Assembly (NCBI GenBank): GCA_050298595.1
Contig: JBNKUM010000056.1
Coordinates: 1 to 64,000 of the forward strand
Direction: 5' to 3'
Source: Gammaproteobacteria bacterium
GTDB lineage: Bacteria; Pseudomonadota; Gammaproteobacteria; GCA-001735895
DNA length: 64,000 nt
Shown: one piece after another, positions 1,264-54,129 of the stretch
How positions within the stretch are numbered: position 1 is the first letter of the stretch
How the letters are laid out: each line of letters begins with the position of its first letter
Made by a program: the position numbers and the translations under genes
The notes under the pieces: generated by a model
What the model was told of the DNA's origin: nothing
Databases searched by the model: none
What the model saw: only the letters and a program-made list of their open reading frames with translations

Positions 1264-1360
1264 CCCCCAGCCCACACACCACCCTGCATTCGGGTTCGCA
1301 CACGACTGAAGGGAATCAGGAGGTAGGGTGAAGCAGGAGGCCAGAACCGAGGGCGTTTCC
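1241..1360 (-). mobile_element. Group IIC(-attC) intron, 3' fragment (domains V-VI), with a 48-nt insertion in domain V
   Basis: Removing 1303-1350 gives minus-strand GGAAACGCCCTGTGCGAACCCGAATGCAGGGTGGTGTGTGGGCTGGGGGTTAGAGACCCTCGGCTACCCGAT: CGC triad, short IIC domain V, AY 3' end. Junction is GCATA|, the attC R'' site. Confidence 0.8.
1303..1350 (+). repeat. 48-nt GGA double-hairpin micro-element
   Basis: CGACTGAAGGGAATCAGGAGGTAGGGTGAAGCAGGAGGCCAGAACCGA; homologous to units at 32866, 50488, 50560, 50593 and 53716. Confidence 0.85.
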
Positions 1361-1570
1361 CAAAAATATTTAAAGCAAGCTGCCCGATTGAGTTAAAGTG
1401 GTCGGAGGTACATGATAACTCTTCTCAACTGAAGTATGTTATATATAATCAGGAAATGAGCTCGTACCGTGTAATAAAATGACATCCTACGACACTGCAA
1501 CCTGTCAGGAATGGCAACTTCGGGTCGTCTTGAGCCAATACAGTCACGATCACTAACGACTGCATATTTG

Positions 1571-1733
1571 ACAGGCTGTGTGAAAACTATTTTCTGATTT
1601 TTAAAGTGGAATATGTGAGTTCATATTCACTCTATTTCCTATGATTGGTGGAATTTGAATCCCGGATAAATTAAACCGTGGTGGGAAATATTTTCGGTAT
1701 CATCAGATTGGAGCGAGTTTCCACATAGCCTGT
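1571..1733. mobile_element. Non-autonomous MITE with 18-bp terminal inverted repeats (IS1182/IS5-like ends)
   Basis: ACAGGCTGTGTGAAAACT (1571-1588) versus AGTTTCCACATAGCCTGT (1716-1733): 16/18 inverted match; no ORF inside. Confidence 0.6.
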
Positions 1734-1883
1734 TGATATAGCCGACAATGTTAATTGTCGGATCTGATGTGAGCTACTGTTCTTTACTAGCATTAGCGTG
1801 CATCATAGCAAATATGAGCTATCTGCCATTACCGGTCGTTTACATCCCCATATACTTGCAGTATCGGTAAGGATGGTAATTTT

Positions 1884-3149
1884 TTAATCGTAAGATTTCC
1901 TTTTATTCCATAACTGCCTAAGTCGGTTTCTTATGTTCTTCTCAACACCAATTTCTTTTGGTTTATAGAATTGAGGCGTTTCAGACGGCGAGTATTGTTG
2001 ATCAACCCAGCCTTCTGAATATGAATGAGGATACAGGTATTTAACTGGAGTATTTTTTTGAGGAAAATTTTTCAGATGTTCCGGTACCTCAATAGTTGGA
2101 TTTGATTTTACATACTCTAATGCTTCGTTTATCGCTAAATATGCTGCGTTACTTTTCACCGTGCTAGCAAGGTAAGTGGTGGCCTGGGCAAGAGAGATAC
2201 GGGCTTCTGGCATACCTATATTGCTTACCACTTGAAGAGCGTTGTTGGCAATGGTGATACCATGTATATCGGCATTACCTACATCTTCTGACGCAAATAT
2301 GACGAGGCGTCGAGCAATAAAAACGGGGTCTTCTCCACCGTCTAGCATGATGGCTAACCAGAGTAGGGCAGAATCGGGGTCTGAGCCCCTCATGCTTTTG
2401 ATGTATGCAGATATTACGTCATAGTGGCGATCTTTGTTGCGGTCATAAGCTCTGGAATTTTCCAGAATGAGCCTTTTCAACGCTTCAATTGAAAACTGAT
2501 TGTTTTCTTTTAATTCTATGGCCATTTCTAAACTGCCAATCGCCTTCCTGGCATCACCGGTAGAATATTCGGCCATCATTTCAATCTCTTCCTTAGTGAA
2601 GCTTGTATCTAGCTTGTCGACTGCTGAGGTAAGTATCTGAAGTGTGTCGTCGAAATCTATGGCCTTTAGCTCGACGATTTTTAGTCGAGATAACAATGCT
2701 CTGTTAATGCTACTTTTAGGGTTTTCTGTAGTTGCACCTATTAAAATGAACTGACCGCTTTCGACATGTGGAAGTAGTGCGTCTTGCTGCGCTTTGTTAA
2801 ACCTGTGAATTTCATCTATGAAAATTATGGGGGTGCGATGATGCATTTCAATAGCATCTTTAGCTGACTGAAAGAGTTTTTTTAATTCAGCAACACCAGA
2901 TAAAACTGCGGAAAAGGGGAAGAACTCAAAGTCCTCTTTGTCACACAATACATGAGCTAAAGTAGTTTTACCGCACCCAGGTGGCCCATAAAAAATCATA
3001 CTTTTAGGCTTGGGTGACTTTAGAAATGGGTACTTATTTTCGAGTCCTTCAATACCAATGAAATCAGATCTCATCTGGGGCCTAAGCCTGTGGGCTAGAG
3101 GAGATAGAGTGGTAAAGCCATCGTTATTACTGAAAAGAGTTTTTTGCAA
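1884..3149 (-). CDS. rarA: Replication-associated recombination protein A (RarA/MgsA), AAA+ ATPase; foreign-looking copy
   Basis: PLAHRLRP, GPPGCGKT, FIDEIHRFNKAQQD, IGATTENP, SMRGSDPD, GEDPVFIARRL, ASEDVGNAD. Probable TTG start at 3149; the ORF extends to 3185. Confidence 0.95.
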   Translation of the reverse strand: MQKTLFSNNDGFTTLSPLAHRLRPQMRSDFIGIEGLENKYPFLKSPKPKSMIFYGPPGCGKTTLAHVLCDKEDFEFFPFSAVLSGVAELKKLFQSAKDAIEMHHRTPIIFIDEIHRFNKAQQDALLPHVESGQFILIGATTENPKSSINRALLSRLKIVELKAIDFDDTLQILTSAVDKLDTSFTKEEIEMMAEYSTGDARKAIGSLEMAIELKENNQFSIEALKRLILENSRAYDRNKDRHYDVISAYIKSMRGSDPDSALLWLAIMLDGGEDPVFIARRLVIFASEDVGNADIHGITIANNALQVVSNIGMPEARISLAQATTYLASTVKSNAAYLAINEALEYVKSNPTIEVPEHLKNFPQKNTPVKYLYPHSYSEGWVDQQYSPSETPQFYKPKEIGVEKNIRNRLRQLWNKRKSYD

Positions 3150-3290
3150 AATGCACCTGTTTATCATTCGAGAAGGATATAACAACCTTCTCGGGTTTAA
3201 GCTTAGCTGGTTTATCTTTGATATTATTCTTTAGCTGTGTCTGTATTTCAATTGCGTCATGGATAGCTTGTAAGCTTCGGAGAAACAAAT

Positions 3291-3437
3291 ATGATCCGTT
3301 TTGAGAAGTTATGGCACTGCCAGTACCCTATAGTTTGGGTGCCGAAATATAGATATAGAGTCTTAAAGGGTAGTATAGCGACTTAAGGATTGTATCCCAA
3401 TGTATTACAGCAGTGTAAACTGTCAGGTAGTCGAATT
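3291..3437 (+). pseudogene. tnpA: IS200/IS605 family transposase (TnpA) N-terminal relic
   Basis: RBS GGAG then MIRFEKLWHCQYPIVWVPKYRYRVLKG...CQVVE; the IVWxPKYR motif is typical of IS200 TnpA. Confidence 0.7.
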
Positions 3438-3442
3438 CTCAG

Positions 3443-3766
3443 GCTCAGGCTGTGGTTTATCTGGCCTGTGCGGCTAAAAGTAATGCGGTTTATGCGGCGT
3501 TCAATATGGCTATGCAGGATGCCCGAGCTTCGGGTAGTTTGATGGTGCCAGTGCATCTATGTAATGCACCCACCCAGTTTATGAAGCAGCTGGGCTTTGG
3601 TAAGGATTACCGTTATGCACATAATGAGGATCAGGCATTTGCGGCAGGGGAGAAGTACTTTCCTGATGAGATGTATGGCAGGCTTTAGTGTCATCCGGTA
3701 GACCAGGGGCTTGAAACTAGAATCGCTGAAAAGCTTAATCTATGCAGTTTGGATAAAAAAACATGA
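3443..3766 (+). pseudogene. rarA: Native gamma-type rarA, 3' relic with internal stop
   Basis: [17 protein letters not shown]...[10 protein letters not shown]...[12 protein letters not shown]...YFPDEM, TAG at 3686, then CHPVDQGLETRIAEKL. The final TGA overlaps the ATG of the next gene. Confidence 0.85.
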
Positions 3767-4365
3767 CGAATCCAAAACCTTTCTCTGAGTCCTGTGTTCA
3801 GAACAGGGCGCCTATCCAGCAGATATTACAACAATATGTCGATGGTAGAGAAACCGTGCTGGAGATAGGTAGTGGCACTGGACAGCATGCAGTATATTTT
3901 GCCGAAGCTTTCCCTCATTTAAACTGGCAAACCAGTGATCTTGCAGAAAATCATGCGGGTATTCAGGCATGGATAGCAGATAGCCAATTACCGAATGTAT
4001 TGCCTCCGCTACTACTCGATTGTTCTGGAGACTGGCCTGAACAGCAATTTGACCTGCTGTATACTGCTAACACTGTACATATCATGTCGCAACTTGCGGT
4101 AGAGAGTATGTTTAGTTCAATCGCCAACTGTATGAATGCAAATTCAATATTGATTATCTATGGTCCATTCAATTATCAGAACCAATTTACCAGTGAAAGT
4201 AACGCTCGATTTGATATCTGGTTGAAGCAGCGTGATCCGTTAAGTGGCATTAAAAACTTTGAATGGCTTCAGGACATAGCAGCTAAATCTGGTTTAGAAT
4301 GCACTCAGGATCATGCAATGCCTTCTAACAATCGAGTTCTGGTATGGCGTTTAATTGATAATTAA
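3763..4365 (+). CDS. DUF938 family SAM-dependent methyltransferase
   Basis: KPFSESCVQNRAPI, VLEIGSGTGQHA, YGPF, SNARFD, MPSNN motifs. Confidence 0.85.
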   Translation: MTNPKPFSESCVQNRAPIQQILQQYVDGRETVLEIGSGTGQHAVYFAEAFPHLNWQTSDLAENHAGIQAWIADSQLPNVLPPLLLDCSGDWPEQQFDLLYTANTVHIMSQLAVESMFSSIANCMNANSILIIYGPFNYQNQFTSESNARFDIWLKQRDPLSGIKNFEWLQDIAAKSGLECTQDHAMPSNNRVLVWRLIDN

Positions 4366-4466
4366 TTAACACTGACCTCAGTTGAAACTTTTCCTGTTCC
4401 TGTCAGACTAACGCTTTTAGAGCTTTTGAAAAGTTAACGAATTTATTTATTAATCAGAGAAATTGA

Positions 4467-5219
4467 ATGAAACCTATTAAATTGATCATAGGCGCAGGCA
4501 TTTTAGCTTGTGTTTCGACTGTTTTACCGGTGCAAGCCGATACCGATAAATCAGAAATAAAGCCTCAAATGACAGATTTACTTAAATCTCGCCTTGGAGA
4601 TGTGGAAATTGGAAAGCCAGTTGCTACTCCGGTAGACGGCATCTATCAAACTCAATTCGGTTCCAAATTCGCGTATTTAACCGGTGATGGCCGTTACGTT
4701 TTGATCGGTGATATGATTGACCTTCAATCGCAATCCAATCTCACCGAAATTGCTCGCCAGGGCGTAGCCAAGAAAGCTCTGGCATCTATGCCAACATCAG
4801 AACTTGTGGTTTTCCCTGCGGCAGATGAAACCAAAGCGGTATTGAATGTGTTTACCGATACTTCCTGCCCTTACTGCAAGAAAATACACGAAGAAGTGCC
4901 TAAGCTACAGAAAGCAGGTATAGAAGTACGCTATTACCCTTTCCCACGTGGTGGAAAGCGTGGGCCTGGTTATCAGGACCTGAAAAAGGTTTGGTGTAGT
5001 GAAGATCGCGCCAAAGCGATGGATATTGCAAAAGAGATTAGCAAGGGAGAACTTTCAGATGGCACCTGCGCTGAAGCTAATCTGGTTGATAAGGGCTATG
5101 ACCTGGGTAACGAAGTTGGTGTATCAGGTACCCCGGCACTTTTTACAGCCAGCGGACGTAAGTTTGATGGCTATGTGCCTTATCAGAAGTTAATCCCCAT
5201 GTTATTAAGTGGCTCCTGA
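4467..5219 (+). CDS. dsbC: Periplasmic thiol:disulfide isomerase DsbC
   Basis: Signal peptide, N-terminal dimerisation domain, FTDTSCPYCKK, GTP cis-Pro motif, GYVP. Confidence 0.9.
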   Translation: MKPIKLIIGAGILACVSTVLPVQADTDKSEIKPQMTDLLKSRLGDVEIGKPVATPVDGIYQTQFGSKFAYLTGDGRYVLIGDMIDLQSQSNLTEIARQGVAKKALASMPTSELVVFPAADETKAVLNVFTDTSCPYCKKIHEEVPKLQKAGIEVRYYPFPRGGKRGPGYQDLKKVWCSEDRAKAMDIAKEISKGELSDGTCAEANLVDKGYDLGNEVGVSGTPALFTASGRKFDGYVPYQKLIPMLLSGS

Positions 5220-5242
5220 TATCTATACGGTTATTTAGAGTG

Positions 5243-5276
5243 AAGGGCGTTGAATGTTATGTTCAACGCCCTTTTT
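5243..5276 (+). terminator. Rho-independent terminator after dsbC
   Basis: AAGGGCGTTGAA...TTCAACGCCCTTTTT. Confidence 0.85.
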
Positions 5277-5558
5277 CGTTGTGAATCAGGCCCTGGGATT
5301 TCATGATATGGATGGTGTGGTTGAATGATGTCTATTGTTCGTTAATAATGAGAATTGATTAAACGAGCTATGCAACAAAAATAAATCTTTATAATTCGCT
5401 CGTGCTGTAAATAAGCTTATACAGAGAAAATGTAGCGCATTTGATCATTACGATAGAGAATGACGCTAGTTAGAAAATTCATTTAACAGTAATTTTTGAA
5501 GTTTTTTACAACTTGCTAGTTGGCAGGTTGTGCATTGCAAGACGCAGATGGTGAGCTG

Positions 5559-5735
5559 ATGACACAAGATGACAAACAGGTTAACAGTTCCGATGATCTG
5601 AGCAGCGAGACTCAAGCGAAAGAAGATGATTCTAATGAACCCCTTCGTCCATCGGAAGAAATAGGTGGCCCCAGAGGCCTCGAACCAACTCGTTATGGTG
5701 ACTGGGAGCGCAAAGGTCGTTGTATCGATTTTTGA
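5559..5735 (+). CDS. DUF1674 / SDH assembly factor 4-like protein
   Basis: EIGGPRGLEPTRYGDWERKGRCIDF signature directly upstream of sdhC; ATG at 5559. Confidence 0.9.
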   Translation: MTQDDKQVNSSDDLSSETQAKEDDSNEPLRPSEEIGGPRGLEPTRYGDWERKGRCIDF

Positions 5736-5800
5736 CCAACTGGTAGAGCTTTTTTTATAAATAAGCGGTATAAAACCGCGCAGTGTTTGGTAGCTAAATA

Positions 5801-6184
5801 ATGACAAACAACAATCGACCGACATCTCCTCATTTGCAGATCTATCAACTTCCCTTGACTGCGAAAATGTCTATCTCTCACCGCATTACTGGTGTGTTTC
5901 TAAGTGCAGGTCTGGTAATAACCGTGTTGTTTTTGTTGGCTCTTGCAGGTGGTCAGTCGAGTTGGGATGTGGCACATAATCTGCTCTCCAGCTGGTTTGG
6001 TCAGTTAGTATTATTTGGTTTTAGCCTGGTACTGAATTACCACATGTGCAATGGCATTCGTCATCTTTTCTGGGATATTGGTCACGGCTTCACGCTGGAA
6101 GCAGCCAGCCGCAATAATAAAATCGTGCTGGTGGCCAGTGTAGTGATAACACTACTAGTCTGGATTGTAGCGCTGTCTGCGTAG
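5801..6184 (+). CDS. sdhC: Succinate dehydrogenase cytochrome b556 subunit
   Basis: RPTSPHLQIY, SISHRITG, HMCNGIRHLFWD. Confidence 0.95.
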   Translation: MTNNNRPTSPHLQIYQLPLTAKMSISHRITGVFLSAGLVITVLFLLALAGGQSSWDVAHNLLSSWFGQLVLFGFSLVLNYHMCNGIRHLFWDIGHGFTLEAASRNNKIVLVASVVITLLVWIVALSA

Positions 6185-6191
6185 GAGAATA

Positions 6192-6575
6192 TTGATGAGC
6201 TTACGAACTCCATTATCTAAAGTAAAAGGTCTGGGTGCGGCCAAAGAGGGTGCCAGTCACTGGTGGCACGAACGTCTGACCTCGATAGCATTGATTCCTC
6301 TGGCGCTTTGGTTCAGTTTTTCCATTGCGCTGTTAGCGGTTGCCGATTACAGCACAGTGACTGCCTGGATTGGTTCTCCATTTAGCAGCGTTTTGATGAT
6401 ACTCGCCATTAGCGTTGGTTTTTACCATGGCTATCTTGGGCTGAAGGTCATCATCGAAGACTACGTTTCCCATGAAACCCTGAAGATTACACTATTGATT
6501 GCTATTGCATTGATGGCGATCCTGTTTGCCACGCTTGGTGTGGTTTCTGTACTGAAAATTTCTTTTGGAGTCTGA
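6192..6575 (+). CDS. sdhD: Succinate dehydrogenase hydrophobic anchor subunit
   Basis: GLGAAKEGASHWWHERLT, HGYLGLKVIIEDYV. Confidence 0.95.
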   Translation: MMSLRTPLSKVKGLGAAKEGASHWWHERLTSIALIPLALWFSFSIALLAVADYSTVTAWIGSPFSSVLMILAISVGFYHGYLGLKVIIEDYVSHETLKITLLIAIALMAILFATLGVVSVLKISFGV

Positions 6576-6578
6576 TGC

Positions 6579-8366
6579 ATGAGTTCAGCTTATAAAATCG
6601 TCGATCACAGCTATGATGTAGTGGTTGTTGGCGCTGGTGGTGCCGGTTTGCGCGCTACCTTCGGGATGGCTGAAAAAGGTCTGTCCACTGCCTGTATCAC
6701 CAAGGTCTTCCCGACTCGCAGTCACACGGTGGCCGCTCAGGGGGGTATGAGTGCTTCACTGGGTAACATGGGGCAGGATGACTGGCGCTGGCATATGTAC
6801 GATACCGTGAAAGGTTCTGACTGGTTAGGCGATCAGGACGCTATCGAGTATATGTGTCGCGAAGCGGTTCCGGCTGTCATTGAGCTTGAGCATTACGGAG
6901 TACCTTTCTCGCGTACCGACGAGGGTAAGATCTATCAGCGTCCGTTTGGAGGAATGACCACTAATTTCGGTGAAGGTACTGCACAACGTACCTGTGCTGC
7001 GGCTGACCGAACCGGTCATGCAATTCTTCACACCCTGTATCAGCAATCGCTGAAACATAAAGCTGAATTTTTTATTGAGTACTTTGCCACCGATCTGATT
7101 ATGGATGACGGCGTTTGCCGTGGAGTACTGGCCTGGGATCTGGCGACGGGTGAGTTACATCGTTACCGCGCCAAGATGGTGGTTCTGGCAACGGGTGGTT
7201 ATGGACGTGCTTATTTTTCTGCAACCTCTGCCCATACCTGTACCGGCGATGGCAATGCCATGGCAATTCGTGCAGGTCTGCCACTACAGGACATGGAGTT
7301 TGTCCAGTTCCATCCTACCGGTATCTATGGTTCCGGCTGTCTGATCACCGAGGGTGTGCGAGGCGAGGGTGGTTACCTGACTAACTCCAAAGGTGAGCGC
7401 TTTATGGAGCGTTACGCACCTAACGCTAAAGACCTGGCATCGCGGGATGTGGTTAGTCGCGCCATGACGGTTGAAATTAACGAAGGCCGTGGTGTTGGTT
7501 CCGAGCTTGATCATATCAACCTGCATCTGGAGCATCTGGGCCCAGAGGTGATCAACGAACGGCTACCAGGTATTGCCGAAAGTGCCAGCATTTTTGCTGG
7601 AGTAGACGTTACCAGACAACCCATTCCTGTACTGCCAACCGTGCATTACAACATGGGCGGTATACCCACCAACTACCATGGTGAAGTCGTTACTCTCAAG
7701 GATGGTAATCCCGATGCTGTTGTGCCAGGTCTAATGGCAATCGGCGAAGCTGCCTGTGTATCGGTTCATGGGGCTAATCGCCTGGGTTCCAATTCATTGC
7801 TGGATATCGTGGTATTTGGCCGTGCCGCCGCAATACGTTGTGGTGAAATAATTGATAAGGATGAAAAGCATAAGCCTCTGAACGATTCTCATATTGAGCC
7901 CTTGCTTGATCGATTTGATCGCTTACGCAATGCCAACGGCAGTATCAGTACCGCTGAGTTGCGTCTGAAAATGCAAAAAACCATGCAAACCCATGCAGCA
8001 GTTTTCAGGACTGGTGAAACTCTGCAAAGTGGGGTAGAGAAGATGAATGACATTTATGCCGAGTTCGATGATGTGAGGGTCTCTGACCGCACCATGCAGT
8101 GGAATACCGATCTGGTAGAAACACTGGAGCTGGATAATCTACGAGCCTGTGCACTGACTACAATGCATGGCGCCAATAACCGTGAAGAAAGCCGTGGCGG
8201 TCATGCCAGAGAAGACTTTGCAGAACGTGATGATGAAAACTGGATGAAGCACACCCTGGCGTGGATAGATGACAAGGGAAAAGTCAGCATCGATTACCGT
8301 CCGGTACACATGAACACCTTAACCGACGAGGTGGAACCCTTCCCACCCAAGGCACGTGTTTACTGA
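6579..8366 (+). CDS. sdhA: Succinate dehydrogenase flavoprotein subunit
   Basis: [19 protein letters not shown]-attachment motif, [17 protein letters not shown]. Confidence 0.98.
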
Positions 8367-8411
8367 TGACTAAAAAAATTGTGAATTGCCGAACCAAGAG
8401 GATGATACACC

Positions 8412-9194
8412 ATGGCTGAGTTTAAATTACCTGCCAATTCCGTCGTAAAAGAAGGTAAGACCTGGCCGGCACCGCAAGGCGCCAAACGTCCCAAGAAGTT
8501 TATCGTCTACCGTTACGATCCTGAATCCGGTGAAAATCCGCGTGCCGATACCTACACCCTGGATCTGGACGACTGTGGTCCAATGATTCTTGATGCAGTG
8601 CTAAAGATCAAAAACGAAATCGATCCTACGCTCACTTTTAGACGCTCATGTCGTGAAGGTATCTGTGGCTCCTGTTCGATGAATATCGATGGGCGCAACA
8701 CACTGGCCTGTACCAAGCCGATCGAAGAAATAGAAGGCGATGTGCATGTATATCCATTGCCACACCAGCCTGTGGTCAAAGATCTGGTTTCGGATCTGAC
8801 TAACTTTTATGCTCAGCATGCCTCGGTGGAACCCTGGATGAAAACCGATACACCCATGCCCCCTGACCGAGAGCAATTGCAATCCAAGGAAGACCGCGCA
8901 CTGCTGGATGGATTATACGAGTGTATCCTGTGCGCCTGTTGCTCAACCAGTTGCCCTAGCTACTGGTGGAATTCAGATCGTTATCTGGGGCCGGCGGCAC
9001 TGCTCAACGCTCATCGCTGGATTCTTGATAGCCGTGATGATGCCACTGGCGAACGTCTGGATGCGCTTGAAGACCCATTCAAACTGTATCGTTGCCATAC
9101 CATCATGAATTGTACAGATGCCTGTCCCAAGAGCCTGAATCCGGCTAAAGCGATTGCTGAGATCAAGCAATTGATCGCCAAGCGCCGTAGCTAG
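8412..9194 (+). CDS. sdhB: Succinate dehydrogenase iron-sulfur subunit
   Basis: [34 protein letters not shown]. Confidence 0.98.
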
Positions 9195-9221
9195 GCATCG
9201 TCATGTGGGCACGAGGATCTA

Positions 9222-9467
9222 ATGATGAGTGAGGTGGCTCGACTGCGCTGGCTGTGCCGGCGCGGTATGAAAGAGCTCGACCTGCTGTTCAATAAATACC
9301 TGGAACATAGTTACCCCACAGCCTCAGAAGCCGATCAACAGGCTTTCGAATCAATTTTACAGATGCAGGATCCGCAGCTTTACGACCTGATTCTCGGGCG
9401 CTTTCAGAGCGAAGATGCGGATATTGCCCGTGTTATCGAATTCCTGCGCAAGTCTCTGACTGAATGA
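9222..9467 (+). CDS. sdhE: FAD assembly factor SdhE
   Basis: RLRWLCRRGMKELD motif; follows sdhB. Confidence 0.92.
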   Translation: MMSEVARLRWLCRRGMKELDLLFNKYLEHSYPTASEADQQAFESILQMQDPQLYDLILGRFQSEDADIARVIEFLRKSLTE

Positions 9468-9493
9468 AGCCAGATATGTTTGGCTAGCTTTAA

Positions 9494-9965
9494 TTGGCCG
9501 ATTTTCTGTTTCATGCAGAATGTGGTTCTGCAATTTATCACGCGGGTGAATTTTGGGACAACCATGACAGAGCAGCCGCTATCGGCTTGCCTGACTCGAT
9601 AGCGCTCGGGCAACCCCTGGCAAATCACCCTCAGCAAGCAGCAAATCAACAAGGTCTTCCCTTGTGCTACACAACTTGTCCGTAAGAGTGAAAGTCAGCC
9701 CGTCAAAATCAATAGTGGGCAAGATCAGATCAATGTTGAAGTATTTCGTCTCGCGATCAATCGTCAGTATGGCTGGAATACGATACCGTCGAATGAGTTT
9801 AGTATTTCACAGCAAGCGTAAGGCTGGGTGTTAACTGGCCATGGGCGTGGTCATTTGGTAGGCCTGTGCCAACAACAGTCTAATCAGCTTGCAGGGCAGG
9901 GATCGCAGTATCATGAAATACTAAAGCTGTTTTATCCCTCGATAACAATAGAAAAGCTGAAATAG
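9494..9965 (+). pseudogene. SpoIID/LytB-domain protein relic
   Basis: Manual translation EVFRLAINRQYGWNTIPSNEFSISQQA*GWVLTGHGRGHLVGLCQQ...LAGQGSQYHEILKLFYP: SpoIID C-terminal GHGVGxxQ...ILxxYYP-like motif with an internal TAA. 5' boundary uncertain. Confidence 0.65.
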
Positions 9966-10105
9966 TGGAACAATTTAAGATACCCTTATTATTGTAAGCA
10001 TTTGACTCGCAAAGGGACTATACAGGCGATTTCGCAAGCTTGAAGGCCTGTGATGATGAGCATACAATCACTATACCTTTTACCTAATGATCAGGAGGAA
10101 AGACA

Positions 10106-10846
10106 ATGAAGGATATATTGAAGTGGTTTATGGTATCGACTCTGCTTATAACCGTCGTCGCAATACAGGCCGATCCTATCAAAGACAACGTGTTGGGAGG
10201 CTATAAGGCCGGCTGGTTCCCTAATATCTATAAAGGCAAGCTGATGAACTGCCCGCAGACTTGTAAAGTCAGGGTCAGTGGTATTTCGGAGCATGAAATG
10301 AGCATGGGTGCAAAAAGCAAGTTCACCAATGTATGTAAGGTTAGTAATGAAAAAGTTGTGGAGCAACCACAGCTACTACGCAGTGCAAAGTTCCTGTATG
10401 GCAACCAGTTCGACAAGAATCCGATCTGCTATACCACGGATATGGAAGGCAAACCGAAGAGAAGCAAAAATTTTTACTGCTTGTGCATTGCTGATCGTTG
10501 TAATGGTCCAGATCTGGTGGTAACTATAATAGAGCAGCCCGTGTGGGATAGCACCGCTCACCGCTCAGTTATCAAGGCTGTGATCCAAAATATTGGCAAC
10601 GCTGATGCAACTGCCAGTATTGCCCGCGTGATCGATCCTTCAACTCCACAACCAGGTGGTGCACCGTACAACGCAATTGCCAATACGCCTGTATTGGTGC
10701 CCGGAGCAACTGCGACTGTTACTTTCTACCTGCCATACTGGGTCTACAACCCAAATGCAGATCTTGAAGTGACAGCCGATTACAAAGGGATGGTCAAGGA
10801 GTGTAATGAGAAAAACAATACCGGGACCTTTCATCGGATGGGGTAA
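10106..10846 (+). CDS. Secreted Cys-rich protein with C-terminal CARDB (Ig-like) domain
   Basis: RBS AGGAGG, signal peptide, Cys-rich N-terminal half, PDLVVT...IQNIGNADA...ADYKGMVKECNEKNN. Confidence 0.7.
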   Translation: MKDILKWFMVSTLLITVVAIQADPIKDNVLGGYKAGWFPNIYKGKLMNCPQTCKVRVSGISEHEMSMGAKSKFTNVCKVSNEKVVEQPQLLRSAKFLYGNQFDKNPICYTTDMEGKPKRSKNFYCLCIADRCNGPDLVVTIIEQPVWDSTAHRSVIKAVIQNIGNADATASIARVIDPSTPQPGGAPYNAIANTPVLVPGATATVTFYLPYWVYNPNADLEVTADYKGMVKECNEKNNTGTFHRMG

Positions 10847-11306
10847 TGACGATACCTGATTGAATACTGCAGGGTGACTGCATTTTCATGATCTGTATTC
10901 AAGTTGCTTCGTAGTTTTTATGGTCAGTAGTTGTTGAGCAGCCAGGGCTTGTCGTGAGATAGCGTAAGGCAGCCCTGGCTTTTCTCAGCAACGCGAAGTG
11001 TCCGTAGAGAGGGTGTTTGTATGAAACGCATTGGCGTTGGTTATGGCTGTATTGATCGGCGGATGAGCCTCAACACCTGAGGTATTTGCCAATACGAGCA
11101 AAGGGCTAAAGGGCAGGATCGACGAAATCTAGCTGGTAATATCCGTTACCACCACAAAACGCCCGATAGCGATGGAATCTTCGCTATGCCATCTTTTCTA
11201 TTGCCAACTGGCTGCGCTGGTTCCCCACTGAAGAGCGAATCTGAGCAGATCCCATGGTGCGTTCTGGCACATAGCGACAGGATACCTGAGCAGCGACACA
11301 AGTCTA

Positions 11307-21909: not shown

Positions 21910-21911
21910 GT

Positions 21912-32740: not shown

Positions 32741-32865
32741 GTCTGGAAAAGTCAACCCGTAACCCGGAATAGTAGGTTGGAAAAGGAGGAACGACGCCTT
32801 CCAACATTGGCTTGCCTTTGAGTTTGCCAGAGTGCTTGTGTTGTTGATGTTGAATGGCGCTTTGC

Positions 32866-32961
32866 TCGGCTCTGGCTTCCTGCTTCGCTCTACCTCCTGC
32901 ATCCTTGCAGTCGTCGGCAACTGCGTCCTGCGTTGCTCTACTCTCTGACATCCCTGCCAGG
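32866..32961 (-). repeat. Two tandem GGA double-hairpin micro-elements
   Basis: Minus strand: CCTGGCAGGGATGTCAGAGAGTAGAGCAACGCAGGACGCAGTTGCCGA followed by CGACTGCAAGGATGCAGGAGGTAGAGCGAAGCAGGAAGCCAGAGCCGA. Confidence 0.85.
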
Positions 32962-42969: not shown

Positions 42970-42971
42970 TT

Positions 42972-43967: not shown

Positions 43968-44059
43968 AATCTCCGCATTTCGTAATCAAATTTTTTATTT
44001 CGCACTCAAGCCAGATATCAACTAGAATCTACGCCGATTTGAAACATTAAAGGGAAACA

Positions 44060-46843: not shown

Positions 46844-48185
46844 AATGATTATATTCAGCCTGCTTGCGTTGACCATGTCTCAGGCACATGCACAAAAGGT
46901 ATTCGAAATATCCGATTATGCCTGGCAGGCACAGATTGTTGTCAGCGATGCTAATCTGCAACGTATCGATATTGGCGTCGATATTCTAAAAGGAATGAGT
47001 CATCAGCAAGCTGCCGATATAGCGGTATTCGATGCCAATGGACAGGCCTTGCCCAGTATGTTGCGTAGAAAGGGGCCGACGACAGAAAGCGGTCAGATTG
47101 ATTTGTCGTTTCACCGTTTTAATCGTGAACAGGTTACTGGTACGGCTGGAACACTGACCATCGATCAGCAGCAGATGGACGATAATAATAATCAGATTAG
47201 CCGTCTGGAGTACCAACAACAACTCGCAGTCACACAGGATAGATCAGATTATATTATTGAATTGACGGATCAGCAGAGAGAGCAGGGTATCAGTGAAATC
47301 GAGCTGGAATGGACGCATCAACCAGCTACTGATTTCCTCAAGCTGACAATACAGGGTGCCAATGATCTCGATCACTGGAAAACTCTGCAACGTGAGAAAA
47401 ACCTGTTTAGCGAGTCCGGACGTAAGGCTGAATGGGTAACTCTGACCCAGTTACCGACACATTATCGATATATTCGTCTGATTCCATCATCTGACATCAC
47501 TGAATTTAATTTACTCAAAGCAACGGGTAGCTACCATCGGGTTATTAATGCGCCTGATCTAGTGTTTAATACGACTACTGCACTTGAGGAAGATGCTAAA
47601 CATGCAGGGTTTTATCATTTTAAGCAACCGCTACAGGTGAAAGCCAAAGGCATGAGTTTTGTGCTACCAGCAGGCTATTTTGTATCCGGTATCCTATATG
47701 GCAGTCATCGCGGATTTGATAAGAAATTTCAGCTTCAATCGAACTTCAGGCAGCATAATATGAGTAATATCGCCGCGAATAAAGCGCTGGATATTTCATC
47801 CTATCGATTTACGGACTGGTGGTTTAAGCCGGATAAAATGCTAGATGTACCTGTTAAACTATCGTTTAGCTATCCTGCTTATGAGTTATATTTTATCAAT
47901 AATCAACAGGGACCTTTTACCCTGGCCTGGGGTAATTATGAGGTTGATCACTTCAATGATAATTTATCGGCCTTACTGCAAAGTCAGGGTAGCAATAGTT
48001 ATTCTAATGCTGCTGAAGTCGACTACCTGGAGATACAGCAGGGCAGTGGTATACAGCGGCAGAATAAAGCCCCGGTTAAACCATGGAAAACCTGGCTATT
48101 ATGGGCTGTATTATTGATAGCTGTTTTAGTGACGGGGCGTATGGCATTTACCCTGTATCGCGATATGAATAGACAAGCATCTTGA
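46836..48185 (+). CDS. DUF3999 family protein
   Basis: Signal peptide, DIAVFDANG, GPFTLAWG, C-terminal TM WLLWAVL; usual partner of DUF2339. Confidence 0.75.
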   Translation: MNKMIIFSLLALTMSQAHAQKVFEISDYAWQAQIVVSDANLQRIDIGVDILKGMSHQQAADIAVFDANGQALPSMLRRKGPTTESGQIDLSFHRFNREQVTGTAGTLTIDQQQMDDNNNQISRLEYQQQLAVTQDRSDYIIELTDQQREQGISEIELEWTHQPATDFLKLTIQGANDLDHWKTLQREKNLFSESGRKAEWVTLTQLPTHYRYIRLIPSSDITEFNLLKATGSYHRVINAPDLVFNTTTALEEDAKHAGFYHFKQPLQVKAKGMSFVLPAGYFVSGILYGSHRGFDKKFQLQSNFRQHNMSNIAANKALDISSYRFTDWWFKPDKMLDVPVKLSFSYPAYELYFINNQQGPFTLAWGNYEVDHFNDNLSALLQSQGSNSYSNAAEVDYLEIQQGSGIQRQNKAPVKPWKTWLLWAVLLIAVLVTGRMAFTLYRDMNRQAS

Positions 48186-49909
48186 GTAAAAGCCAACCTG
48201 GAATCGTATTCAAGCAGCGGGAAGCTGACGCACAATTACTGGCTGAGAAAAGCACGCTGCATCCACTATTGCAGCGGATTTTTAGTGCGAGGGAGATATC
48301 ATCATTTGCTGAAACCCGCTATTCGCTGAGTAATTTATTATCCCCTGAGAGTATCTCTAATCTCAGCGAAGCTGCACAGTTACTGGCAAAGCATGTACAG
48401 CAACACTCATCGATACTGATTCTAGGTGACTATGATGCGGATGGAGCAACCAGCACTGCGCTATGCGTAAGAGCATTGAATATGCTAGGCCATGCCAAGG
48501 TCAGTTTTATATTACCCGATCGGGTTATCGATGGTTATGGTGTATCTGGCAATATCGCACAGCGTGTGATCGATTTAGCTCCAAAACTGGTGATAACAGT
48601 TGATACTGGCATTGCCAGTTTCAAGGGCCTGAGCATGCTGAAACAGGCAGCTATTGATGTCATTATCACTGACCACCATCTACCAGCAGAGGGTTTGCCC
48701 GATGCCAATGTGATTGTAAATCCAAATGCTTTTGCTGACAGTAGTGGAAAGAATCTGGCTGGTGTAGGAGTCGCATTTTATCTAATGCTGGCAACGCGTA
48801 GTGTATTACGCCAATCAGGCTATTTCGAAAAGCAGTCAGAACCCAATTTTGCAGAGTGTCTCGATCTGGTCGCAATAGGGACAGTTGCCGATCTGGTACC
48901 ACTGGATTATTACAATCGCATTCTGGTCAACGAGGGGTTAAAAAGAATCCGTGCAGGAGCCTGCTCAAGAGCGGTCACCAAACTCATTCAACTTACGGGA
49001 AGAACTCAAAAATACCTCACCAGTCAGGATATTGGATTTACCCTGGCCCCACGCATCAATGCCGCAGGTCGTCTGGACGATATGAGTATAGGTGTTCAGG
49101 CACTGCTGACCAACGATGAAACACAGGCTGCTGCTCTGGCTTTCGAGCTGGATAATATTAATGCCTATCGGCGTGAATTACAGGATGAGATGACACAACA
49201 GGCGATGCAGATGCTGCCTGATATTGATGACATAACAGGCCAGGCGAAATTCAGCTATGTGTTATATCAGGATAGCTGGCACGAAGGCATTGTGGGTATC
49301 ATCGCCTCAAAGATCAAAGACATGACATTCCGCCCCTCAATCAGTTTTGCACAAACGGAAGAGGGTGCGCTCAAGGGTTCCGGTCGGTCAATACCGGGAG
49401 TTCATATGCGCGATATGCTTGATCTGGTTGATAAACAATCTCCCGGGATCATACGCCGATTTGGCGGACATGCCATGGCTGCGGGTTTAACCATAGAAAA
49501 AGACAGTATGGAACAATTTAAACACAGCTTCGAGCAGGTATTACAGCAGCAAATCGATCCTGACTGTTTCGATAATGTCGTTTATTACGATGATGAAATT
49601 AATGCGGCTGATATAAATCTCGAGATGGCTTTATTACTACGAGAGACTGGTCCCTGGGGACAGCGTTTTCCTGTACCGAGTTTCATTGGAGACTTTAAGG
49701 TACTCAACCAAAGGATACTCTCCGACAGACATCTGAAATTTATATTGAAACTCGAAGGTCAGCCTGGTCAGGTTGACGCTATTTTATTTTATGCGACTGA
49801 TGAGGAGCTCAGAACTAATTATCAGACTATCAAATTACATTATGAACTTAGTGTAAATATCTACCGAGAACAGGAAAGCGTACAGTTGATGATTCGTCAT
49901 ATCATTTAA
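48182..49909 (+). CDS. recJ: Single-stranded-DNA-specific exonuclease RecJ
   Basis: GDYDADG, TDHH, GTVAD, PRINAAGRL, GSGRS, FGGHAMAAG. Confidence 0.96.
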   Translation: MSKSQPGIVFKQREADAQLLAEKSTLHPLLQRIFSAREISSFAETRYSLSNLLSPESISNLSEAAQLLAKHVQQHSSILILGDYDADGATSTALCVRALNMLGHAKVSFILPDRVIDGYGVSGNIAQRVIDLAPKLVITVDTGIASFKGLSMLKQAAIDVIITDHHLPAEGLPDANVIVNPNAFADSSGKNLAGVGVAFYLMLATRSVLRQSGYFEKQSEPNFAECLDLVAIGTVADLVPLDYYNRILVNEGLKRIRAGACSRAVTKLIQLTGRTQKYLTSQDIGFTLAPRINAAGRLDDMSIGVQALLTNDETQAAALAFELDNINAYRRELQDEMTQQAMQMLPDIDDITGQAKFSYVLYQDSWHEGIVGIIASKIKDMTFRPSISFAQTEEGALKGSGRSIPGVHMRDMLDLVDKQSPGIIRRFGGHAMAAGLTIEKDSMEQFKHSFEQVLQQQIDPDCFDNVVYYDDEINAADINLEMALLLRETGPWGQRFPVPSFIGDFKVLNQRILSDRHLKFILKLEGQPGQVDAILFYATDEELRTNYQTIKLHYELSVNIYREQESVQLMIRHII

Positions 49910-49918
49910 TGCAGTTTC

Positions 49919-50030
49919 CTAAACTGTGGCAGGAAATAGCCCTATGCAAGGCATCATCCGCAGGGAGTGCTGGCCCTTTTCAAGAATGACAACGTAGCAG
50001 AAGGCTATTTTCCGGCTCGCCCGAAGGGAA
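49919..50030. repeat. Structured intergenic repeat / MITE fragment
   Basis: Long hairpin GGAAATAGCC...GGCTATTTTCC enclosing CAAGGC...GACAACG, an architecture also present in the 50215 element. Confidence 0.45.
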
Positions 50031-50294
50031 GTAACCTTCCTGGGACTATATCAAAGAAATGGATAGCAATCTCATGGAGATTGATTACAGAGACTATTCC
50101 TCTTATATCGGTAATATCCATATTTCAGCCTTAGAAAATATTAAAAAGTAGACAATTACTCTTTCTTTTATAGATTAGATTTTTATAATGCCGCACATTC
50201 TGCAAGGTTTCATTCTGGAATCCGCAGTTGGAGGAGTTGTAGTGCGTTTGCAGTGGTGTAGATCAAGGCGTGACGACGCGGAATAGCAGAATTA

Positions 50295-50391
50295 CAAGGC
50301 TTCCGCGTCCTGCTCACGCCCCTTACCTAAGTCCATATAGGCAAGGCTTCCGCGTCCTGCTCACGCTCCTTACCTAAGTCCATATAGGCAA
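50295..50391 (-). repeat. 2 x 47-bp tandem unit
   Basis: CAAGGCTTCCGCGTCCTGCTCACGC(C/T)CCTTACCTAAGTCCATATAGG at 50295 and 50342. Confidence 0.9.
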
Positions 50392-50487
50392 TGCAGAGAT
50401 ACGCCGCCGGAAAAGTGCAATTCAGCTCGTAGCTGGATTCACCTGTTGGTTTTCAGCATGGATGCTGTTATTTCGCGAATGCATGGA

Positions 50488-50651
50488 CGCCTATATGGAC
50501 GTAGGTGGTAGGGTGAAGCAGGAAGCCAGAACCGAACTATTGTCGAGAACAGTGCAGGACGCCTAAAGGGAGTTAGGTGATAGAGCGAAGCACGACTCAA
50601 GGGACGAGGTAGGGCGAAGCAGGATGTCTAAGCCGAGGAGGCCAGAGCCGA
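50488..50651 (+). repeat. Three GGA micro-elements, one (50593-50636) nested inside another (50560-50651)
   Basis: Units begin CG(A/C)CT and end CCGA; the counterpart at 53716-53763 lacks the nested unit. Confidence 0.85.
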
Positions 50652-50855
50652 TGCATTAGAGCGTGAAAAAATATTTAGACTGTAATGCCTGACGAAACAG
50701 TGAGTTACCCTCTAATACGAGCGGTCAACTGCGGAATCTATGTTTATAACTGAGTGCGTGATTATCTATTAGCTGACTGGGTGTTTACAGCTAAAAATCC
50801 GACTCCCATAATTGTTTATTATCAGAGATGTGAAGTTTTGTAGTCTTATTAACAA

Positions 50856-51899
50856 ATGAAAGCTCAATTACGAATTTTAAAACAACTGGCCATCTGGATT
50901 TTTCCTTTTACAGGATTAAACATTTATCTGTCAAACTCTTACAACCAGTCTCTTTTTGAGTTGGCCGTGTGGTGGGGTGAAAATTACACTCTTACTGTGA
51001 ATACCTCCGTAAAGCTAATAACGTTTGCAATTTTATTCATATTATTTTCTCTTCAGTTCATAAGTTTATTGAATTCAATGTGTCTGGGTATTTTCGGTCG
51101 AAAACATTCACGGGTATTTTTAGGCTGTCTAATTAAAAATACCACTATGAACTATCGGCCAGAGGATAAAGAAAAAAAAGTCATTTGTGAACGCAATTAT
51201 AAACAAGAATTCAATTATAGTTTTCACGATGTCAATCGGTTGAAAACGTTCATAAAATTGCCTTTTACTGAAAACACTCTGGTAAATAGCAATAAACATT
51301 TACATCCTTACTCAATCTTAAACCGCATCATGTTAATGTTGTTTTTTGCTATGCCTACATTAGCAGCAATTCATGCTCTGGCATTTCCAGCGTATGTCGT
51401 TGACCAGAGTAGGGGGCAAATACTATCCGATGATGCCGTGCAAAGTTTTGATCAGGTATTATCAGCCTTTAATTTAAATCTATTTACTTCAGCCATCGTT
51501 TTTTTCTCCAGTCTTTTGATAGCCATTTATTTTTCCAGTAAGCAGCAAGATGATTCTGGAAAACAGGTCGAACCTCTACCAGAATATATAAGGCCTAAAA
51601 GTATCGTTATTGGAAAACCAATTATTCTCGTAAAAACCACCATTGAAAAATTTGATGAGCTTACTCAATTAAAGACTCAGGTTGATACGGGATTGCGTCG
51701 CGTATCGTTTGAGTTTGCAGAGGGATTTTATCCGCCTGTTTATGTGACTTTAAAGTTTGATCGAAATAAATATCCTGAGTTAGAAAAACAAATCATGCTG
51801 AATATAAAATCTAAAAAGGCTATGAGTTTTGAATTGACAGAAAAGTTGAGATTGAAGGTAATTAAAAAGGAAGAAGAGGCTGAAAAAAAATCTGCATGA
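50856..51899 (+). CDS. Hypothetical membrane protein
   Basis: 347-aa AT-rich ORF with several TM segments; no recognised family. Confidence 0.65.
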   Translation: MKAQLRILKQLAIWIFPFTGLNIYLSNSYNQSLFELAVWWGENYTLTVNTSVKLITFAILFILFSLQFISLLNSMCLGIFGRKHSRVFLGCLIKNTTMNYRPEDKEKKVICERNYKQEFNYSFHDVNRLKTFIKLPFTENTLVNSNKHLHPYSILNRIMLMLFFAMPTLAAIHALAFPAYVVDQSRGQILSDDAVQSFDQVLSAFNLNLFTSAIVFFSSLLIAIYFSSKQQDDSGKQVEPLPEYIRPKSIVIGKPIILVKTTIEKFDELTQLKTQVDTGLRRVSFEFAEGFYPPVYVTLKFDRNKYPELEKQIMLNIKSKKAMSFELTEKLRLKVIKKEEEAEKKSA

Positions 51900-52055
51900 T
51901 GGAAAATTCAGGTAGCTTGTATGTATGTGCAACTATTAAATCTTCTCATCGGACAGGATAAGGCAAAAGCAGGACTCTAAAGTTTTCATTGCAGTCCAGA
52001 GTGTTTTTTCTGCAATGCAAAAGACTCGATGGTTTCAGGAATATAATATTGAAAC

Positions 52056-53060
52056 TTATTGTGCTAAAACCTCGCTATGACCGATCCATGTGCTAGATAT
52101 TCCCAGTTTACCTTCCACAGATCTGGAGAAAGTCTGTGCTTCTTTTAATGACTGAAAATCTTGTACAGCGATACGGTAAATACTGGTGCCTTTACGGTCA
52201 ATAATGATGATTCTGGAATTAAGACTGGCCTTATGAAATCTCTGATTGACCCGCTCAGCCTCCGCCTTATCAAGCGTAGAAAACAAGTAGACATTATACT
52301 GCCGTCTCGATTTACTTGCTGCGGGAGTAGTGTTGTTTTTTATTGCTGTCTTTTCATCCTGAGTAAGGCTGGTTTTAGCTTTAGCCGCTGTACCTGGCAG
52401 ACCTGTTGATTTATTTTTGGTCTTATTTTTCGTCTTCTTATCTACAGTTGTTTTAGCTGAGTCTTTTGAATCAGAAGCTATCAAATCGAATGAACCATCG
52501 TCATTGATGAGCAATTGTATACCCGGTTGACTAAGAATGAACGCGTCGGATTGCTCGTTTTGGGTGATTTGAATGCTGCCATTGATCAAGTAAACCGAAG
52601 ACGAACTTCTTCCGCGCTGAACACAGATATCATAGTTGAAAGAAACCGCTGAAACGAGAGAATTGCCTACTTTGATATCATGCATATCACCAGGTTCTAA
52701 CGCTTGCTTGGAAAAGATACAGCTTTTTCCTTTATTAATAACCAGTATCAGTGGTTGGCTATTTGTTGTTGATTTTTCTATTTCCTTAGCTTGTATGCTG
52801 ATCTGGGATTCAGGATAAAGGAACAAAGTAGTAGATACCCCCATTTGTATCTCTGCCTGCCCTCTATTACCTGTGGTTATTTGATCGCCTGGTTTTATTA
52901 CCTGATTTCTTTTCAGATCAGTTTTATGTGTTCCCTGTTGTAACCAGACTGGGGATTTCAAAGCAGTAATTTTTTTTTCAGTGAAATCAGCGGCAAAAAC
53001 AGAGCAAAATATTTGACTGAGTAATATGGAACTGATGAGTATCTTTAGCATAGATTTCAC
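52056..53060 (-). CDS. Secreted protein with FecR-like N-terminal domain and C-terminal SPOR domain
   Basis: Signal peptide, GDQITTGNRGQAEI, Lys/Thr linker, YRIAVQDFQSLKEA. Confidence 0.7.
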   Translation of the reverse strand: MKSMLKILISSILLSQIFCSVFAADFTEKKITALKSPVWLQQGTHKTDLKRNQVIKPGDQITTGNRGQAEIQMGVSTTLFLYPESQISIQAKEIEKSTTNSQPLILVINKGKSCIFSKQALEPGDMHDIKVGNSLVSAVSFNYDICVQRGRSSSSVYLINGSIQITQNEQSDAFILSQPGIQLLINDDGSFDLIASDSKDSAKTTVDKKTKNKTKNKSTGLPGTAAKAKTSLTQDEKTAIKNNTTPAASKSRRQYNVYLFSTLDKAEAERVNQRFHKASLNSRIIIIDRKGTSIYRIAVQDFQSLKEAQTFSRSVEGKLGISSTWIGHSEVLAQ

Positions 53061-53210
53061 ATAATGGTAAGGTTGTTTTTATAGCACAAATAAGCACAAA
53101 AATAAAAAGAGTCAGATTCGAAGCGGTCAGGTACTGCTGTGTACAAAACTGAAAATATTTTTATCCGTCCTGAATTCGGTTTCTGACCTGAGTTAATCAA
53201 AATACGTAAT

Positions 53211-53633
53211 TTACACCACCTTACTCGCTTCACGATAAGATACCATGCGTTGTTGGTTCTCGTCCCACAGACTTGATTGAAAACAGTCAATAATATCTCG
53301 TAAAGCGATAGATGTGGTCACAGGTGACTGTAATTCGGGAATCGCTGCCATGGCTTCGGGCAGGCGGTAGAACGGTATGCGCACATTGAGGTTATGAACA
53401 TGGTGATAACCGATATAGCCGGTAACTCACTGCATCAGTTGGTTGAGCTTCATATAACAGGTAGATTCGAGCGTCGCGCGCGATAGAAGGTCAAGGCCTC
53501 AGGTGAAATTATAATCATGCGTTTTAAGCTCTGCCGGGTGAAAAAGAGATAACTATCCAGTGCTGAGGCAAGGGGCATTGGTATCAACACCACAAAAAAG
53601 CCACATCAAAACCGCCAAACACCCATAGCAAGG
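53211..53633 (-). pseudogene. Fatty acid desaturase 3' relic, truncated at the MITE copy 2 boundary
   Basis: Manual translation ...LMQ*VTGYIGYHHVHNLNVRIPFYRLPEAMAAIPELQ...LWDENQQRMV: third His box with stop and frameshifts. Confidence 0.75.
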
Positions 53634-54129
53634 CGCAGTTGACCGCTCGCGTTAGAGGGTAAGCCACTGTTTCGTTAACCATTATCATCGATATGTCTAT
53701 TCACGCTTCTATGCATCGGCTCAGGCATACTGCTTCGCTCTATCACCTAAATCCCTTTAGGCGTCCTGCATTGTCCTACCTTCGTTCATGTTAGCGTCCA
53801 TGCATTAGCGAAATAACAGCATCCATGCTTAAAACCAAACAGGTGAATCCCGCTACGAGCTGAATTGCACGTTTGAGGCGGCGTATCTCTGCGTTGCCTA
53901 TAGGGACATAGGTAAGGGGCGTGAGCAGGACGCGGAAGCCTTGCCTATAGGGACATAGGTAAGGGGCGTGAGCAGGACGCGGAAGCTTTGCCTATAGGGA
54001 CATAGGTAAGGGGCGTGAGCAGGACGCGGAAGCTTTGTAACTCCCTGGAATAGCTCGCTATTGTGCGTCGTCACGCCTTGATCTACAATACCTTAAACGC
54101 ACTACAACTCGTCCAACTGGAGATTCCAG
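53634..54129 (-). mobile_element. MITE-like element, copy 2 (inverted, one terminal repeat clipped)
   Basis: Reverse complement aligns end to end with 50215-50740 (CTGGAATCTCCAGTTGG...GAGCGGTCAACTGCG). Confidence 0.8.
53894..54037 (+). repeat. 3 x 47-bp tandem unit
   Basis: TTGCCTATAGGGACATAGGTAAGGGGCGTGAGCAGGACGCGGAAGC(C/T) at 53894, 53941 and 53988, closed by TTG. Confidence 0.95.

Follow-up and report, generated by a model that had tools for sequence, protein, structure and literature searches.

A window of 64,000 nt (positions 1 to 64,000 of contig JBNKUM010000056.1, assembly GCA_050298595.1, from a gammaproteobacterium of the GTDB lineage GCA-001735895; 'the window' hereafter means this whole stretch) contains repeated copies of a unit of about 48 nt predicted to form two hairpins with GGA loops, one copy lying in domain V of a group II intron and another inside a further copy of the unit itself. 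Are such units copies of a mobile element, what moves them, and are they kept for a function in RNA? A preliminary description of the window had suggested that the units insert as discrete wholes, had likened their insertion to that typical of HUH (Y1) transposases and had proposed that they may spread binding sites for CsrA/RsmA. We found that the units do insert as wholes, at a short asymmetric target, and that the family is dispersed well beyond the window; the mover and the regulatory role are assigned with more reserve. Contigs of the window's own genome, loci and other genomes are cited where necessary by our C, L and G numbers, respectively.

Insertion of whole units at short asymmetric sites

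All seven intervals given in the preliminary description carry the sequences described there, comprising five 48-nt units, one 44-nt unit and one 48-nt unit split by the 44-nt unit, and the start motif CG(A/C)CT, the end motif CCGA and the GCAGTA variant were as reported. The first unit (1303-1350, + strand; 65.1 bits with our covariance model, CM) occupies domain V of the 3' fragment of a group II intron (domains V-VI; 1239-1395, - strand), about 110 nt of which are homologous, in an alignment made by eye, to an intact copy on C18. Two further units form a head-to-tail pair on the - strand, the downstream member at 32866-32913 (76 bits; identical copies on C51, C100 and C115) adjoining a member of a divergent subfamily at 32914-32961, in which hairpin 2 is fully paired (GCAAC/GTTGC; 32.9 bits). 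On the + strand, a host resembling a miniature inverted-repeat transposable element (MITE), which we designated H1 (50436-50738), holds the units at 50488-50651 in its hairpin loop GCATGGA|TGCAT: a first 48-nt insert at 50488-50535 (63.9 bits), then a 48-nt host unit at 50560-50651 (segments 50560-50592 and 50637-50651) split by the 44-nt unit nested at its GAAGCA|GGA (50593-50636; also a CM match). The remaining unit, the 48-nt GCAGTA variant (53716-53763, - strand; 60.9 bits), lies in a second H1 copy that is inverted with respect to the first (53630-53849, - strand; lower boundary approximate).

The CM, whose training set included the window units, gave nine matches at E<=1 in the window, namely the seven listed pieces and two short weak partials, and revealed no further full copies. 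A 27-nt pattern of the 3' part, allowing up to three mismatches, matched five times in the window and not once in 100 shuffles. The list of 'at least seven' units was nevertheless incomplete, since five 47-nt units of a sister subfamily were absent from it: two in tandem at 50298-50391 (- strand) and three in tandem at 53894-54034 (+ strand). In these, GCGTGAGCAGGACGC accompanies a hairpin whose loop is ATGGAC or AGGGAC; the CM missed them, and the 15-mer core of their subfamily occurs 39 times in the genome.

Units insert as discrete wholes, as sites that occur both with and without them demonstrate. The preliminary description had reconstructed an intact domain V by removing 1303-1350, and the C18 paralogue reads precisely so, with GCACA|GGGCG and no unit where the window copy has 48 nt exactly at that junction; the C18 copy matches RF00029 at 48.2 bits and the window copy gave no match at E<=1. 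A third intron copy, on C85, has the same insert together with a further partial nest, and an intron fragment on C74 has nine unit bases at the same domain V junction. The inserts in the window, C85 and C74 are most likely one old event that was copied afterwards. Also on C74, a CRISPR-DR4 repeat match of 50.1 bits lies at 1422-1449 of L002 (G000:C74). The second reconstruction, in which removal of 50593-50636 restores the host unit (AAGCA|GGAGG), was borne out by the reuse of GAAGCA|GGA at no fewer than 10 other loci in the genome; the subfamily beginning CGACTCC is the one sitting at this site within other units.

Similar pairs of empty and filled sites were found in other hosts. The window's genome has at least six empty and at least 12 filled copies of H1, the latter with one to several units each, and the cut always falls after the TGGA of the hairpin loop. 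In other genomes a unit occupies the apex of a Pseudomonas hairpin resembling repetitive extragenic palindromic (REP) sequences, and empty and filled copies of a 42-nt element, H2, occur side by side in L106. H2 (seen in L081, L106 and L073) is a GGA-hairpin element that serves as host to the 48-nt unit and is itself inserted in coding genes, where it keeps the frame. In two genomes of the same genus (G012 and G010) the orthologous recJ spacer is without the entire repeat block, and a third has a short H1 without units. The orthologous comparison at 32.8 kb was uninformative because the spacer is not conserved in relatives; the runs listed as containing the locus comprised four of DNA, as contigs only and with tangled paralogue joints, and none of RNA, and no allelic empty site was callable from them.

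Target preference was assessed in 98 distinct flank contexts, with duplicate flanks counted once (the flank logos leave out units whose ends were atypical, 9 of 117 external ones and 7 of 32 from the window's own genome). Position -1 was A in 82 of the 98 sites as compared with 234 of 934 controls, and position +1 was G in 74 of 98 as compared with 242 of 934; C was never found at +1 (0/98) and A was rare at -2 (5/98). GGA adjoined the junction in 25 of 98 sites and in 23 of 934 controls. In sum, units enter whole and always with the same orientation relative to a target that is short and asymmetric (not-A, A | G, purine, purine; CA|GGA as the archetype), and comparison of empty with filled sites reveals no duplicated target bases apart from a single ambiguous A, in agreement with the CA|GG-like site proposed previously. 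Unit orientation is constant relative to a given host. Neighbouring matches less than 150 nt apart lay on the same strand, head to tail, in 21 of 21 cases and on opposite strands in none. The 3' junction of an inserted unit recreates A|G, so that a later copy can insert into an existing one or behind it, giving rise to head-to-tail arrays and nests.

Structure, spread and strand of the family

The unit is predicted to consist of hairpin 1 (a stem of at most 8 bp, free in sequence, with an NGGA loop), the spacer GTAG, a weak hairpin 2 and a terminal CCGA; hairpin 2 would comprise a foot of 3 bp, an internal loop containing tandem G.A, a 2-bp tip and an AGGAW loop. We aligned 93 sequences, made up of six from the window and 87 distinct sequences from 119 external pattern matches. 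The alignment consensus was the 48-nt unit, with GTAG at positions 21-24, internal to the unit and directly 5' of hairpin 2 (stem of only 3+2 bp), and with two GGA motifs 24 nt apart. The covariation reported for hairpin 1 was confirmed, as all eight pairs vary on both sides and the covariation score of 0.220 compares with 0.097 for shuffles (0 of 500 reached it) and 0.018-0.073 for slid partners; paired cells amounted to 77.9 %, against 71.0 % in shuffles. Pairs 2-19 and 3-18 were mostly G.A and A.G, and in hairpin 2 the pair 27-44 changed from C-G to U-A in six sequences. Conservation was at least 90 % in the GGA of the loop (columns 10-12) and in the final eight columns, none of which the search pattern had forced. 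With regard to the strand of the structure, helix positions displayed 35 G.T and 23 A.C combinations, which did not clearly favour either strand. Predicted RNA folds matched the structure in three of four window units.

The family extends far beyond the window. In the window's own genome (5.49 Mb, 119 contigs), nhmmer with a five-sequence profile gave 110 matches at E<10 and 68 at E<1e-3 in 51 loci, with 54 near full length. Copies of exactly 48 nt numbered 46, of which 40 were distinct, with a mean pairwise identity of 80 % and one sequence present four times. A 19-base degenerate core pattern matched at least 118 stretches in a collection of species-representative genomes, and nearly all of the matches listed were full units with the same ends. 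They come from Pseudomonas and genera split from it, Shewanella, Marinobacterium, Endozoicomonas, Cellvibrionaceae, Paraglaciecola, Pseudoalteromonas and Marinomonas, as well as Thiohalomonas, Thiohalophilus, Sedimenticola, Methylococcaceae, Woeseia, a tubeworm symbiont and many metagenome-assembled genomes (MAGs). In an even draw of 150 gammaproteobacterial genomes, one per family of the class, 25 had a CM match at E<=1e-3 and are referred to below as carriers; copy numbers in this draw are floors because only 40 candidates per genome were scored. By pattern, several named genomes had 2 to 13 copies (0 with a reversed-pattern control), copy number was high in the window's genus, and near-identical units were found in different orders and on plasmids. 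The units are thus dispersed rather than limited to the window, both in its own genome and across the families sampled, and they matched no Rfam family, either at gathering score in the window or at E<=10 over 50400-50760. Literature searches with four 15-mers of the unit gave no occurrence, and an 11-mer returned only unrelated primers. Our searches of the literature on CsrA and repeats, and on small dispersed repeats, yielded no account of the family; a related family may be tabulated among the REPs of PMC3733652 (figure 1, additional files). The 48-base element and its mover seem to be undescribed so far.

Most copies are intergenic, and copies within genes are a small minority of the 119 pattern matches examined. 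Units occur in frame in the anticodon-binding domain of valyl-tRNA synthetase (valS; L081) and in an E1_dh domain (L106), with Pfam matches on both sides in each case, and in pglX on two plasmids the unit forms a 16-aa in-frame insert. By direct reading, the unit is 16 codons long and open in five of six frames. Of the long open frames running across units in GC-rich genomes, most lacked a Pfam match and were taken as spurious.

The orientation of units follows replication, not transcription. Co-directional gene contexts in the window's genome, defined by crude open reading frame (ORF) calls, comprised 11 sense and nine antisense loci. Replication was assessed in eight long-contig genomes in which dnaA was placed and the terminus assumed to lie opposite it, two of them being MAG or scaffold assemblies. 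The GGA strand was the leading-strand template in 57 of 81 loci (p=3e-4), with per-genome counts of 18/24, 11/14, 8/15 (G023), 7/7, 2/6 (G168), 10/13, 0/1 and 1/1.

Candidate movers and rival explanations

We hold with moderate confidence that the units represent a non-coding mobile element of very small size (48 nt, varying between 44 and 50) that is unable to move alone, and for which an HUH enzyme of the Y1 (RAYT/IS200-like) type, RAYT standing for REP-associated tyrosine transposase, would be the best candidate mover. Such a mover would act in trans on single-stranded DNA at the replication fork, and the replication-linked bias fits a single-strand mechanism. The conserved 3' half and the GGA loops may be the features that the mover recognizes, and any binding of CsrA/RsmA by transcribed copies would be a by-product.

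The HUH (Y1) transposase of the preliminary description fared less well than the insertion events did, as no unit was linked to the ten best Y1 genes and no transposase-like gene recurred around 118 loci; what backs the idea is the replication bias and an enrichment of multi-copy Y1 in carrier genomes. Y1_Tnp matched in 21 of 25 carriers and 72 of 125 non-carriers (p=0.013), and the odds ratio for three or more copies was 8.9 (p=3e-6). The corresponding figures for rve, taken as a control, were 23 of 25 and 82 of 125 (p=0.008), with an odds ratio of 1.8 for three or more copies (p=0.18). A correlation of carriage with RAYT/TnpA genes, as suggested earlier, was thus obtained for multi-copy Y1 and is partly common to rve; the suggested alternative, a correlation with reverse transcriptases, was not obtained. 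Four carriers had no Y1 match, of which one has a marginal unit match and three are genomes at most 73 % complete. The family tallies take in two unpublished genomes (G056 and G158), both non-carriers, and the figures barely change without them. The window's genome encodes some 18 diverged paralogues of the long Y1 (HUH) type, which measure 215-293 aa and have a HIIQRGNNR-like motif, several of them broken (23 places listed). Taken together, a Y1 route is possible but unproven.

A series of observations weighs against the movement of units by a Y1 enzyme acting on single-stranded DNA. In the window's genome, none of the 10 best among 26 Y1 matches had a CM match (E<=1) less than 1.5 kb away. 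Around the other Y1 matches the nearest units were more than 4 kb away with one exception, a unit 216 nt from Y1 that lies within a different, unrelated MITE interrupting a decayed Y1 gene. The Y1 paralogues are each flanked by their own, different inverted repeats. Across 118 loci, no transposase-like gene was recurrent around the units, the only clusters being GGDEF/response-regulator, ABC and LysR families, and no gene lay between unit halves or adjoining units. The presence/absence association with carriage was equally strong for rve, and genome size and mobile-DNA load therefore confound that of Y1. The invariance of columns 22-40 is uninformative because the search pattern fixed those columns, and folding energy was no better than that of shuffles on either strand, as DNA or as RNA (z -1.5 to +0.8). 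The replication bias had the same sign in the window's own genome when judged by GC skew and was not significant there (28/49), and it was absent in G023 and G168. It could equally reflect selection against stable hairpins on the lagging-strand template, and, were the GGA strand the active one, its polarity would be the reverse of that in IS608. Hairpin loops were rejected as a general target (16 of 98 sites versus 143 of 980 controls; 39 of 115 versus 218 of 575 in a looser test), and loop insertion is retained only as the individual cases of H1, H2 and the Pseudomonas REP apex.

It is conceivable, though in our view unlikely, that the unit is kept mainly for an RNA function, as a portable twin site that would bind a dimer of CsrA/RsmA and so tune or sponge this regulator, with mobility serving for spread only. 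The unit loops resemble the CsrA/RsmA consensus, G10, G11 and A12 of loop 1 are conserved whilst the stem covaries, the spacing of the two GGA motifs is compatible with this explanation, and GGA-bearing sites are favoured as targets. The window's genome also has two csrA genes, and one region (G000:C91:8446-9311) comprises csrA, tRNA-Ser and a terminator followed by two sense units about 400-700 nt on. On the other hand, an RNA role is disfavoured by the lack of sense bias, by an orientation that tracks replication with the GGA strand mostly opposite the leading strand, and by the in-frame copies within coding regions; furthermore, no unit was found near csrA in five of five other genomes and no Csr/Rsm or TwoAYGGAY Rfam model matched the units. 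What stands of the CsrA/RsmA claim in the preliminary description is accordingly the likeness of the loops.

It is improbable, in our view, that the REP/REPIN-RAYT systems (REPINs being inverted pairs of REPs) include the unit as an ordinary member, that is, as a GTAG-tagged palindrome moved by its own single-copy RAYT. The position of GTAG directly 5' of hairpin 2 and the enrichment of Y1 genes in carrier genomes are in keeping with such a membership, as is the occurrence of REPs inside other palindromes and ORFs, including tRNA synthetase genes, noted in PMC3733652. However, no unit flanks a Y1 gene, inverted doublets made up 0 of 21 neighbours, and GTAG is internal, unlike the terminal GTAG or CGTC tag of the 20-40 bp REP palindromes. 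The same unit sequence is, moreover, common to several orders, whereas REPs co-diverge with their RAYT.

Spread via RNA by a reverse transcriptase such as a group II intron protein is an unlikely route, and as an account of the family it is very improbable: one unit does lie in an intron domain V and the genome has several introns, but RVT_1 matched at E<=1e-8 in 7 of 25 carriers and 43 of 125 non-carriers (p=0.65), and the 18 of 25 carriers without such a match include the richest, G081 (at least 46 unit matches). The notion that the units are immobile and owe their origin to tandem duplication in place and to recombination among GGA-rich stretches, for which the head-to-tail arrays and some copies with deletions between repeated ATGGA words might speak, is scarcely credible given identical units in unrelated loci on different contigs, the precise empty and filled pairs that contradict it, an A1-[A2-B2]-B1 nest that tandem duplication cannot produce, and the near-identical units across orders and on plasmids.

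If the reading of the units as a small mobile element moved in trans holds, it would place them among the smallest discrete mobile units known in bacteria, and among the unusually widespread ones, with occurrences in about one-sixth of the gammaproteobacterial families sampled and on plasmids as well. It would account for puzzling repeats with a conserved core and unrelated stems, and the element would merit masking or annotation in genome pipelines. It would also be one that disrupts structured RNAs, as in intron domain V, and adds 16-residue inserts to enzymes. The tiny size of the unit makes the substrate requirements of its mover directly testable, and two CsrA-type loops per copy could provide a concrete route by which Csr/Rsm sites and sponge-like arrays arise. 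A bolder version, which we regard as speculative and rather doubtful, is that pan-gammaproteobacterial 'micro-transposons' of 44-50 nt with two GGA-loop hairpins are moved as single-stranded DNA by a large and diverged family of unlinked long-type Y1 paralogues and home to GGA sites including their own, thereby building twin CsrA/RsmA sites, sponge-like arrays and 16-residue inserts. If true, this would make the unit a regulatory module that moves, and its transposition substrate both new and minimal.

Neighbouring features and comparison with known systems

Two blocks of the window, at about 50215-50745 and about 53630-54130, form a large inverted pair of composite repeats made up of 47-nt units, H1 and 48-nt units, and flank two ORFs without Pfam matches (50856-51899, + strand; 52056-53060, - strand). 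The left block is missing from two genomes of the same genus. Beside the unit pair at 32866-32961, a separate repeat of about 113 nt (32753-32866) recurs many times in the genus. At the beginning of the window, positions 1-243 (- strand) correspond to the beginning of a second copy of a group II intron (RF02001, 1-131), which is cut by the contig end and displays 99 % identity to the C18 copy over 176 nt. A 179-aa ORF with a signal-like start, a PEP-CTERM-like tail and no Pfam match (724-1263, + strand) overlaps the end of the intron fragment carrying the first unit. Judged from sequence motifs, 1884-3185 (- strand) is a putative RarA/MgsA-like gene, and a short frame on the opposite strand (3452-3688, + strand) appears to resemble the C-terminus of RarA.

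Amongst systems moved by Y1 enzymes, palindrome-associated transposable elements (PATEs) derived from IS200/IS605, and IS608 itself, share with the unit an oriented insertion next to a short sequence without duplication, a dependence on hairpins and a replication-linked orientation (PMC6006769). Y1 enzymes act on the lagging-strand template (PMC6006769). The unit differs in having no subterminal hairpins set back from its ends and no tetra- or pentanucleotide target, only A at -1 and G at +1 being conserved, and no matching autonomous insertion sequence was found.

REPs and REPINs are likewise short structured extragenic repeats with GTAG beside a hairpin, occur in many Gammaproteobacteria and sometimes within palindromes or ORFs, and are thought to move as single-stranded DNA (PMC3116915, PMC3733652). 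REPINs are inverted pairs beside their RAYT (PMC3116915), and head-to-tail dimers are rare among REPs (PMC3733652). The unit, in contrast, has no inverted doublets and no Y1 neighbour, carries its GTAG internally, combines two unlike hairpins and forms head-to-tail arrays and nests. Its occurrence as one sequence across orders also departs from the species specificity of REPs. Compared with MITEs, the unit ends CGAC... and ...CCGA are not inverted repeats and there is no duplication beyond the one ambiguous A.

As regards RNA elements, the TwoAYGGAY motif (RF01731), for which PMC2864571 has a table entry, likewise comprises two hairpins with AYGGAY-type loops in Gammaproteobacteria, and loop 1 of the main subfamily of the unit reads ATGGAT. 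The RF01731 model (168 positions, 43-bit threshold) matched no unit, and its single match in the genome (30.3 bits, C89:20075-20203) lay away from units. Sponge RNAs of the Csr/Rsm systems (CsrB, RsmY/Z) are single transcribed genes with many GGA hairpins, whereas the units are dispersed copies on both strands with no Rfam match.

Two classes of small repeat from other bacteria provide the last comparison. Rickettsia palindromic elements (RPEs) are longer and confined to Rickettsia. They are mentioned in PMC3733652 as hairpin repeats in frame inside functional genes. The in-frame copies of the unit are alike in this respect, and differ in that most copies here are intergenic and the element is shorter. 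Cyanobacterial small dispersed repeats (SDRs) of 21-27 nt were reportedly described by Elhai et al. in 2008, and are said to appear to insert into each other and into MITEs without target duplication and with no known mover. The unit differs from SDRs in phylum and sequence, and shares with them a size below 50 nt and insertion into one another and into MITEs.

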